Of a stretch of DNA of 64,000 nucleotides, positions 32,129-59,703 are shown piece by piece. How positions within the stretch are numbered: position 1 is the first letter of the stretch; each line of letters starts with the position of its first letter. Below the pieces are notes generated by a model. It had not been told where the DNA came from. It did not search any database and saw nothing but the letters and a program-made list of their open reading frames with translations. Where the stretch lies: the NCBI GenBank assembly GCA_951406725.2, contig OX597823.1, forward strand, positions 31,062,001 through 31,126,000. Direction: 5' to 3'. The stretch comes from Octopus vulgaris. Its lineage: Eukaryota. The position numbers were made by a program, and so were the translations under genes.

Positions 32129-32186
<58 letters not shown>

Positions 32187-32245
32187 TGCAAACAAACAAC
32201 TTGCACATGCAAGTGCTACCAGTTAAAAGCTCCGTATATCGGAAG

Positions 32246-32356
32246 CTAGCAAGTGTATGGGGTCATCAGGAGAGAATGCGCGCCGTTTCGGGGCCTACCT
32301 CTCGACGGCATCAATGCGCACCGGCCCCCTCACTGATATGAGGCCCCGCTTGCTAG
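32246..32356 (-). ncRNA. Non-circularly permuted hammerhead-like motif, family B (intact core)
   Basis: Minus strand: P0 CUAGCAAG-C-GGGG; hairpin CUCA..UGAG; II GGGGCC; III-distal GUGCGC; III GCCG; UC; I GAGAGG; UA; II' GGCCCC; GAAA; III' CGGC; III-distal' GCGCAU; I' UCUCUC; CUGAUGA; P0' CCCC..CUUGCUAG. The element (32184-32404) has (TA)n on both sides. Confidence 0.8.
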
Positions 32357-32403
32357 ATCAGCTGGTTATGATGAACTCAATATACTTCTAGCCATCGCTC
32401 ATC

Positions 32404-32521
<118 letters not shown>

Positions 32522-32539
32522 GTGTGTGTGTGTGTGTGT

Positions 32540-32832
32540 GGAGGCGCAATGGCCCAGTGGTTAGGGCAGCGGACTCGCAGTCGTGGGATCGCGGTTTCGA
32601 TTGCCAGACCGGGCGTTGTGTGTGTTTATTGAGCGAAAACACCTAAAAGCTCGACGAGGCTCCGGCAGTGAGTGGTGATCCTTGCTGTACTCTTTCCCTC
32701 TTTCTTCTGTTGGCCTGCTCGCTTAGCCAGCGGGGTGGCGTCGTTCGAAGGCTGAAACAATGCCAACGCATTGTGACCAGCGATGTGTACCAACATCTGA
32801 TGGTCTGGTCGGTCACGTGACGTTATCACGTG
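32540..32832 (+). mobile_element. tRNA-headed SINE (family 4)
   Basis: GGCGCAATGGCCCAGTGGTTAGGGCAGCGG..GTTTCGATT head; lies between microsatellites. Confidence 0.78.
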
Positions 32833-36568: not shown

Positions 36569-36704
36569 CATTCGTTGCTTTCTTCCAAGAAATCTAAAGC
36601 TTAGTTTTTCCTTGGGGCTACCCAAATTCAAGCAATCTCAAGAATAATCAGCCGAAATTGCGAGGATAATTTGGTGCTTGACTGAGGATAGAGGGCTTCG
36701 AATG
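36569..36704 (+). ncRNA. Non-circularly permuted hammerhead-like motif, family A copy 2 (intact core)
   Basis: II GGCU 36616-19; III-distal CCAAAUU; GCAA 36632-35; UC 36636-37; I UCAAG 36638-42; II' AGCC; GAAA 36654-57; UUGC; AAUUUGG; I' CUUGA 36677-81; CUGAGGA 36682-88. P0 is CAUUCG../..CGAAUG. Host element is about 36515-36810. Confidence 0.78.
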
Positions 36705-42529: not shown

Positions 42530-43440
42530 TTGTACACAGTGCTCAGGTGCACTACAAAAAAACCAAAAATAAAAAAACAAAAAACAAAGAAATAAAAAGA
42601 CCATCAGGTGTACTGTTGGCAGATTTCAGGAAGCATGGAAGTTTTGAAGGACGTAGTGTCTTGACAGCTAATGACTAATGCAGGTAGTTTATTCCATGCT
42701 TCAGCAATTCTGAGAGTGAAAAAAATGTTTCCGAAAGACATGGGTGCTGTGTTGTTGTTTTGATTTTATAAGCATGTCTGCGAGTGTTTGTCATATGGAA
42801 TTCAAAAAGGTTCCCAAGGTTGTTGTTGGAAAGATGGTGGATAATCTTATGGGCGTCAACCTAAGTCAGTTGCCAGACATCTGAGCTTCAATGTATCCAT
42901 GCCCAGGGAAACAACACATTCAGAGTATGGTAAGATGTCTGACGGTGGGTATTCCTTTTGCTGCACGTTTCTGAACAGTTTCCTGGAGAGTTATATACTG
43001 AGCAAGATTGGGGTTCCAGACTGGCGATGCAAATTCCAAGTGTGGATGGACCATTGTCGTATACAATTTTAAATAGGTAGCTGGAGAGCGGCTGATAAAG
43101 GTCTTACTGAGTGATGCTTGCACCCCCTCAGCCTTCTTTACAGTCTTAGAGATGTGGTTTGTCCAACGCAGATCGTTGTTTACAATAATGCCCAGATCAG
43201 GTCCGTTGGAAGACTTCTTGAGATTGGTGTTGCTGAGGGAGTATGTAAAGGCTAGATTTTCCATCATAAAATGCATGGTGATGCACTTGTCCACAGCTAG
43301 CTTGAGTTGCCAGTCAGAGATCCATGCAATGCTGCATTGTATCCAGGACTGATTGCAGGAAAGATCTATAGCGCATAGGATCTGTTCTTTTTATTTCGAG
43401 GTACAGCTTGACGTCATCTGCATATTTCAGCACTGTTAAG
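42530..43440 (-). mobile_element. Second, more diverged CR1/L2-group LINE fragment of the same family
   Basis: ORF 42920-43294 (DLGIIV..HLEFASPVWNP), with KYADDVKL at about 43405-43430; alignable with 20600-21430. Confidence 0.9.
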
Positions 43441-45066: not shown

Positions 45067-45112
45067 AACACAACGTCTCGGCTGATAAACCCTCCAGCGT
45101 TCATCAGGTGTC
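45067..45112 (-). ncRNA. Degenerate minimal type I hammerhead
   Basis: GACAC-CUGAUGA-ac-GCUG..CAGC-c-GAGA-CG-UU-GUGUU. GAAA is mutated to GAGA; stem III is the ACGU palindrome. Confidence 0.65.
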
Positions 45113-45169
45113 TTGGGGAAATTTCGAACCTAGTTTCTCATTCCTAAGGTATTCCGAACTTTGTATGGT

Positions 45170-50234: not shown

Positions 50235-50376
50235 CATTCGGAGTTTTCTTTCCTCGGTCGAGTTCCAGATTATCTTTACAATTTCGGCTGGTTATATTCG
50301 AGATTGCTCCAACTGGCCAGCGTCAAGGAAAAACTAAGTTAAGGGCATTAGATTCCTTGGAAGAAAGCAGCGGATG
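50235..50376 (-). ncRNA. Non-circularly permuted hammerhead-like motif, family A copy 3 (core U4C)
   Basis: Same layout as copies 1 and 2. Stem I is UCGA/UCGA here versus UCAA/UUGA in copy 2, a compensatory change. Core reads CCGAGGA; GAAA and AUC are retained. Host element is about 50140-50415. Confidence 0.7.
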
Positions 50377-59564: not shown

Positions 59565-59616
59565 AACCACTACGATCGTTTCGTGTCAGCACATCTTAGA
59601 CATTCTTCAGGTGGTT
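59565..59616 (-). ncRNA. Minimal type I hammerhead ribozyme, inverted identical copy
   Basis: Exact reverse complement of 59652-59703. Confidence 0.85.
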
Positions 59617-59651
59617 CCTTCATAGTTTATAACTCGCTAAGAAGGTTTAGA

Positions 59652-59703
59652 AACCACCTGAAGAATGTCTAAGATGTGCTGACACGAAACGATCGTAGTG
59701 GTT
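59652..59703 (+). ncRNA. Minimal type I hammerhead ribozyme (Penelope-like-element type)
   Basis: AACCAC-CUGAAGA-a-UGUC..GACA-c-GAAA-CGAUCG-UA-GUGGUU: 6-bp stem I and a palindromic stem III (ACGAUCGU). Confidence 0.85.

Follow-up and report, generated by a model that had tools for sequence, protein, structure and literature searches.

A hammerhead ribozyme with a core divided into two parts is predicted on the minus strand at 32246-32356 of the window, the whole 64,000-nt stretch of octopus DNA analysed here. We think it fairly likely that this split-core hammerhead cuts as a single taut molecule and releases a unit-length RNA of its host element, which is predicted to be circularised and copied. 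The core nucleotides of the hammerhead ribozyme (CUGANGA, GAAA and NUH) are all present. The nested three-way junction of hammerhead types I-III is absent and the stems cross instead. Rfam models at gathering score gave no match in the window.

All coordinates of the ribozyme below refer to the minus strand. Its blocks run in the order S (III-UC-I), G (II'-GAAA-III') and C (I'-CUGAUGA), and a G-rich strand that precedes block S pairs with II'. The 5' strands of stems II (32328-32323, from G10.1), III (32309-32305) and I (32303-32298) come first, and the partners follow in the same order, II' at 32295-32290, III' at 32285-32282 plus A15.1, and I' at 32274-32270. Block S (32298-32309) contains the stem III 5' strand, U16.1 (32305), C17 (32304) and the stem I strand, and the predicted cut falls between 32304 and 32303, where 5' ends of genomic copies accumulate. 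Block G (32282-32295) carries GAAA at 32289-32286 between the 3' strands of stems II and III. The stem I partner and CUGAUGA (32269-32263) together form the 5' half of a split block C (32263-32274): the core is opened between A9 and G10.1, and the stem II partner is supplied from upstream of the cleavage block.

Four further helices complete the fold. Helix X (32344-32347 with 32262-32259) has its 3' strand immediately after CUGAUGA and bridges the A9/G10.1 break, and an outer closing helix (32349-32356 with 32253-32246) extends X past an internal loop. Hairpin Y (32329-32342) has 5 bp and an AUCA loop here and is longer in most relatives. Helix D (32316-32322 with 32281-32275) is separated from stem III by a one-sided 6-nt bulge (32310-32315), which we refer to as the hinge. 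Two extra hairpins at 32243-32231 and 32214-32199 (32199-32243 overall) lie between the ribozyme and the insertion junction, and the first is also present at loci L123 and L124.

An earlier note, made from the letters of this stretch, had described mutually crossing stems (ABCABC), and our fold bears this out, since each 5' strand precedes all partners in the order II, III, I. The very short links that it reported also stand: II to D is GG and D to I is UU, 2 nt each or 0 when G.U pairs are counted, and the links are equally short in the family A copies at +36637, -23291 and -50302. Its nested hairpin, whose loop does expose H-I-UA-II'-GAA as claimed, is the minimum-energy fold, but its stability is no better than that of shuffled sequences (z -0.86). 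Two other elements of that description need revision. Helix D had been read as a distal extension of stem III, whereas the 6-nt one-sided bulge lies between them here and a kink-turn consensus occupies this place in 15 of 28 clusters of relatives. Helices X and Y, which close the core break, were missing from it, and a third family that it listed, C, was located neither by a relaxed parser nor by a covariance model.

The ribozyme belongs to the 3' end of a mobile element, family B. The window copy (32182-32404, minus) is a 5'-truncated 3' end inserted in (TA)n; BLAST against the full unit covers 32405-32178 at 98% identity. It is truncated about 100 nt above the cut, retains the last codons of the open reading frame with the stop at 32379-32377, and ends at a 3' insertion junction (32182-32189) about 120 nt beyond the cut, the point at which tandem copies continue into the 5' end of the next unit. 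The earlier placement in a long terminal repeat is contradicted by this arrangement, in which the sole copy in the window is the truncated end of a non-LTR element. An LTR retrotransposon or LTR retrozyme was rejected more generally, because the repeats vary from 46 to 1855 nt past the cut and Pfam finds RVT_1 only; a Penelope identity for family B was likewise rejected.

Across the surrounding genome (2.8 Gb, microsatellite-rich), a 219-nt piece of the window gave 2334 candidates, 40 of which were scored and are about 100% identical, while an 18-nt core occurs at 838 places and a 20-nt anchor at 1127. One unit measures 3737-3738 nt; in long copies, units are joined into partial head-to-tail tandems that have a ribozyme at both ends. 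Longer copies encode a single 1175-aa ORF with RVT_1, and its best matches among solved structures (PDB) are R2 proteins. By eye, the ORF carries what we take to be an N-terminal zinc finger, a CCHC knuckle and a restriction-like endonuclease of the PD-(D/E)xK type. HERO-like is our presumptive label, assigned from C-terminal motifs and from fish and amphioxus homologues. Judged from its sequence, by ORF layout and by fixed 3' and variable 5' ends, family B is an R2-superfamily (RLE) non-LTR retrotransposon. Internally deleted units of about 565-1450 nt that retain the ribozyme and the unit junction (L302, L303, L309, L310) are likely non-autonomous derivatives. Candidate target-site duplications were found in 3 of 98 sampled copies; at locus L014, inside a different retroelement-like ORF, a direct repeat of about 60 nt seen by eye flanks the insertion at both junctions.

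Family A, present in the window at 23229-23361 (minus), 36575-36699 (plus) and 50240-50370 (minus), shares the split-core fold, here with a kink-turn. Its unit of about 750-850 nt is non-coding, with no ORF found, forms partial tandems and gave 4786 candidates in the genome. A covariance model built from metagenomic HERO-like relatives alone detects the window copies of family A (E 2e-5 and 3e-4), and family B itself scores weakly on it (E 0.27).

The window holds other repeats. A tRNA-like SINE with A and B box-like motifs, seen by eye, occupies 32520-32830 (plus) directly after the microsatellite that adjoins the ribozyme. At about 45070-45140 (minus) lies a conventional type I Penelope-like hammerhead remnant, whose upstream motif dominates the genome match listing, so that its family must be very abundant in this genome. 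At 59594-59675 there is a near-perfect inverted repeat; both of its strands contain CUGAAGA, and it has the look of a Penelope-like end with an inverted 5' duplication. By eye, 20012-20494 (plus), 20605-21604 (minus) and 42920-43390 (minus) hold pieces of an integrase-like ORF and of ORFs for CR1/L2-like reverse transcriptase.

Related elements in metagenomes provided the evidence for the fold. From a scan that returned 161 related loci, we kept the best 80, which are 32-56% identical in the endonuclease, and parsed the 420 nt from the ORF end with the pattern X-Y-II-D-III-UH-I / II'-GAAA-III'-D'-I'-CUGANGA-X'. The parser matched 51 of the 80 relatives and none of the controls (0/80 reverse complements, 0/80 upstream stretches, 0/800 shuffles; 0/960 in total). 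Of the 29 unparsed relatives, 18 were matched by a covariance model, 15 of them shortly downstream of the ORF and 3 elsewhere. Neither method found the motif in the remaining 11 of 80, some being cut-off contigs; eight loci with no match have long downstream sequence (L133, L138, L141, L146, L161, L185, L186, L200). Relatives of this kind may have lost the ribozyme or may use a different one. Searches of viral contigs and of prokaryote genomes found no relatives.

Grouping at 80% identity gave 28 clusters, among which the upstream strand pairs with II' in 24-28 at each position, with G-C at 10.1-11.1 in 24. The canonical SGC pairing of stem II, with the strand directly after CUGANGA, was considered and rejected: that strand pairs with II' in only 5 of 28 clusters at the first position and in 12-15 at the next four. 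For an alignment with MAFFT we chose 21 relatives similar in length, leaving out the bulge class because MAFFT misaligned it. Of the paired cells in this alignment, 91.9% are complementary, against 33-42% in slid controls. Both sides change in 32 of 39 pairs, including all 10 pairs of helix X, and stems I, II and III covary; stem III is non-palindromic and 4-6 bp long. X, Y, D and III also emerge from RNAalifold without guidance. Neither CUGANGA nor GAAA varies in the alignment, all 28 clusters have NUH as the cleavage triplet (which is partly built into the parser), and the top pairs of helix D are among the most conserved. Older copies within the genome (20 loci) show decay and no covariation.

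The crossing stems raise the question of whether one molecule can form every helix. The earlier note had argued that it cannot and that the loop of one nested hairpin must dock into the multiloop of another, giving an obligate, domain-swapped dimer. We examined this with an idealised, straight A-form stack of stem II, core and stem III, using phosphate coordinates and 7 Å per free nucleotide. The pairing of that note needs 37 Å where the reach is at most 33 Å, a 4 Å shortfall, and with all possible pairs formed the mismatch grows to 38 Å needed against 22 Å. Under strict pairing the claim of impossibility holds in this model, but a single frayed pair relieves it: with pair 10.6 freed, 35 Å must be spanned and 40 Å is available, and with one hinge pair freed the two values are 37 Å and 38 Å. 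In the kink-turn class the shortfall is on the other strand; it amounts to 8 Å (42 Å needed against 34 Å) and disappears with a 4-bp stem II (38 Å against 41 Å). On this crude model the cage is taut, with a margin of about one base pair.

Features of the hinge bear on how that tension is met. A kink-turn consists of a 3-nt bulge followed by tandem G.A/A.G pairs between a canonical and a second helix. The hinge fits this consensus in 34 of 53 sequences and 15 of 28 clusters, family A among them, and in further lineages it was seen there by eye. Family B has no kink-turn and carries the one-sided 6-nt bulge instead; its closest relatives have a 3-7-nt bulge on the strand opposite to that of the kink-turn. 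Even though the bulge is not always on the same strand, the two strands of the strut add up to 40-46 nt in 27 of 28 clusters. A conserved bend and a fixed strut length favour an arm that folds back on its own core, and they are also compatible with a symmetric dimer ring. Because the top pairs of D are conserved, fraying sits poorly as the explanation.

A precedent is SGC-3, one of the type-SGC hammerheads of Eckert et al. 2023 (PMC10085705), which cleaves during transcription at 0.13-0.19 per min and requires all four helices. Judged by eye from its oligonucleotides, SGC-3 has the same zero-nt link from stem III to D and the same 7 nt from stem III to stem I, and the puzzle posed by the zero-nt link was already raised by those authors. 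SGC-3 could itself be dimeric; the accessible text of that paper reports no test of concentration dependence.

We consider obligate docking of two copies improbable. In its favour, apart from the distances, full-length elements do hold two ribozyme copies, and the available parts of the literature describe dimer-dependent hammerheads in Penelope elements and amphibian retrozymes. However, one frayed pair removes the shortfall, SGC-3 cleaves with the same link, the window copy stands alone, and the LTR premise from which the second copy had been derived is wrong. The two copies of a unit are identical and 3.7 kb apart, and the intramolecular partner is always closer. We conclude that the ribozyme probably works as a single molecule and does not need two copies. 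The fallback offered in the earlier note, partial melting with cleavage of the monomer, comes close to the reading that we prefer.

Loop Y offers a separate route to pairing between copies. Of the 28 clusters, 17 have a self-complementary hexamer at the middle of this loop, against a mean of 2.3 and a maximum of 9 in 20000 shuffles; the observed count includes the L142 hairpin re-parsed by eye. Most are UGAUCA or UGGCCA, with UGUACA, AGUACU and CAUAUG once each. Switching between palindromes requires both central bases to change, and such double changes, which preserve the palindrome, speak for a dimer. Non-palindromic variants occur in several copies of three lineages (UGACCA 3, UGAUCC 2, UGACCC 1, UGUCCA 1), and family B, whose loop is plain AUCA, lacks the palindrome along with its closest relatives, which counts against two-copy docking. 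A quick protein tree (145 columns, many open forks) places most palindrome carriers in one weakly supported group; the set that has both kink-turn and palindrome is thus largely one group, and their co-occurrence is not independent evidence. By sequence, the palindromic loop could pair two copies in relatives, a lead that does not extend to the window locus. It is possible, though unlikely, that two split-core hammerheads kiss through this loop in most relatives and swap halves, that cutting and circle closure need two copies per transcript, and that the autonomous LINE-type element replicates through the resulting circular RNA. Such kissing would resemble a retroviral dimerisation signal, and the paired hammerheads would, if this were true, act as a copy-counting switch.

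The ends of genomic copies bear on whether the ribozyme cleaves in vivo. Of the first 100 core places listed we examined 98 (2 belong to L040). Four of these copies start exactly at G1.1, against about 31 breaks, in part internal deletions, in the 126 nt that follow. A second site, -122, is the start of 3 copies, so the cut is not the only place where ends accumulate. Filtering the whole genome for copies whose upstream sequence is lost between +4 and -7 returned 15 rows, 3 of which keep upstream element with internal indels. Among the remaining 12, the break lies exactly at the cut in 8, with flank beyond it in 7 and a distant part of the ORF in 1; the others break within one base of the cut (1), at -2 (2) and at -7 (1). 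Eight of 12 at one of 12 equal positions has a binomial probability of 8e-7. In a control window of 15 nt just downstream, 32 rows contain about 15-17 scattered breaks, roughly 1 per position by eye. This exact accumulation of 5' ends supports cleavage in vivo at the predicted site, indirectly but specifically. At two loci (L330, L331) a distant part of the ORF adjoins the cut site directly, a junction that resembles the product of a template jump from a cleaved 5' end.

This accumulation, the invariance of CUGANGA and GAAA and the NUH triplet in 28 of 28 clusters (in part a product of the parser's construction) all argue against the fold being kept mainly as a protein-binding 3' RNA for target-primed reverse transcription, with catalysis vestigial. 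The fold does lie 70-120 nt from the priming point, where R2-type proteins bind their RNA. We regard this reading as very improbable.

How often the ribozyme cuts is a further matter. About 95% of copies run through the cut site, a figure that is also compatible with a slow ribozyme on an uncut tandem transcript. The ribozyme might be slow or mostly silent, so that few transcripts are cut, partial tandems are read through and longer copies arise by template jumps of the reverse transcriptase. The R2 reverse transcriptase jumps between templates, the two loci that join the cut site to the distant ORF resemble such jumping, and the site is intact in most copies. Against this, the cut-site junction is precise in the sampled crossing copies, and extensions that vary in length, up to half a unit beyond full, need a circle or repeated exact jumps. 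A slow or silent ribozyme of this kind seems to us rather unlikely.

The tandem structure bears on the preferred reading, in which cut RNA is closed into a circle. The 3' ends of 94 of 98 sampled copies fall at +104 to +131 from the cut. The unit junction is crossed at 23 genomic places, at the same point as the 3' insertion end, and we examined 23 junction-crossing loci, 20 of those places and 3 further loci. Seventeen of them continue past the first cut by 46-1855 nt, which suggests a circular template; another 2 begin at +1 or +2 and 4 begin downstream. Where the sampled crossing copies differ at the cut-site junction, the differences are substitutions, mostly at CpG. Six relatives also continue from the ribozyme into an N-terminal ORF. 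At the start of the next unit, a CCAGUGAC-like motif is conserved across distant relatives, together with GGAAAGAC repeats at intervals (L040:4922-5100, L130, L136, L140, L147, L149, L152, L154, L159, L164), possibly promoter or translation signals; L138 and L141, which have no ribozyme match, still continue into GGAAAGAC repeats. In one run, presumed to be RNA, a 1283-nt assembled contig forms a loop that spans the ribozyme and the unit junction at a depth of 76 of about 100; a tandem transcript or DNA would yield the same loop, and we therefore do not count this contig as evidence. Contigs assembled from sequencing runs do not reveal ends.

We propose the following sequence of events. X and Y would stack on one another, and a four-way junction of these two helices, the core and stem II would keep A9 beside G10.1. 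The tops of stems I and II would be held together by helix D, as they are in type-SGC ribozymes; the kink-turn or bulge would turn D back so that it runs along the II/III stack, and either about one terminal pair would fray or the stack would bend. Both ribozymes of a partial-tandem transcript would then cut, the ends of the released unit would re-pair through X, II, D and III (about 20-30 bp), and RtcB or the reverse reaction would seal the nick; closure by RtcB has been shown for retrozymes, as described in the accessible part of PMC7229834. Priming by the element's protein about 120 nt past the cut, followed by copying through the sealed site, would produce copies that are 5'-truncated, of unit length or longer than a unit, and unsealed templates would yield 120-nt copies that start at the cut. 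Because the priming point is near the 5' end of a doubly cut unit, copying of the ORF needs the site to be sealed, uncut or jumped. A circular template is most likely, and uncut or jumped linear templates are its main rival. Two copies would matter for releasing the unit, which takes two cuts, and each single cut need not involve both. Circles were already proposed for Penelope tandems by Cervera and de la Peña (PMC4209133, in the text available).

If this reading is true, the connectivity lies outside the six hammerhead permutations of 2023, since a block assumed to be indivisible is split. As given in the accessible sections of PMC10085705, Eckert et al. assumed an uninterruptible block C when they defined those permutations, and their SGC and CSG examples come from metatranscriptomes and metagenomes only, none from the genome of a known organism. 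The split means that descriptor searches and Rfam miss the motif. Non-circular hammerheads would occur in animal genomes at over a thousand copies, and an autonomous R2-superfamily element would join a circle-templated path proposed mainly for Penelope elements and retrozymes. An open structural question, that of a linker-less helix on stem III that also clamps stems I and II, would become testable; natural variants solve the clamp geometry by a kink-turn or by a bulge on the opposite strand. Our literature search, with subscription papers, Repbase reports and bioRxiv supplements outside its reach, found no publication on this motif. In Naiad elements, Craig et al. (PMC8557442) noted half cores that are unexplained.

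Among known ribozymes, the nearest are the type-SGC hammerheads as described in the accessible text of PMC10085705. Shared features are the S-G-C order, crossing stems, complete core nucleotides, a link of 2-3 nt between stems I and II, a helix that joins the far ends of I and II, and a link of sometimes zero nt from this interaction helix to stem III; helix D corresponds to the circled-I interaction helix of stems I and II. The motif here differs from type SGC and CSG in its split block C, as the strand after CUGANGA forms X and the stem II strand comes from upstream, and from type SGC in that both strands of D join stem III, through a kink-turn or bulge. It thus has the order, the short I-II linker and the interaction helix of type SGC, but not an uninterrupted block C.

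Penelope hammerheads with their pseudo-LTRs, as the available portions of PMC4209133 and PMC8557442 present them, are similar in having a terminal-repeat ribozyme that arises from partial head-to-tail tandems, in the proposal of circles as templates for more-than-unit copies, and in accepting one extra nucleotide that falls between position 9 and position 10.1. Those motifs are type I and dimerise through a short palindromic stem III, whereas stem III here is a full, non-palindromic helix of 5-6 bp, and the host here combines a reverse transcriptase with a C-terminal CCHC and restriction-like endonuclease where Penelope-like elements have GIY-YIG. Metazoan non-LTR retrozymes (PMC7229834, from the text accessible) share hammerhead-cut tandem units and circles that form mostly via RtcB. 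They are non-coding, 170-400 nt long and equipped with type I hammerheads, unlike the 3.7-kb autonomous family B; family A is nearer to them. R2 elements with a 5' HDV-like ribozyme, as set out in the accessible part of PMC6765202, likewise have a single ORF, belong to the same superfamily and use a ribozyme to define the 5' end of the RNA. The ribozyme here is of another class, and every insertion has it upstream of the priming point; more-than-unit copies also occur.
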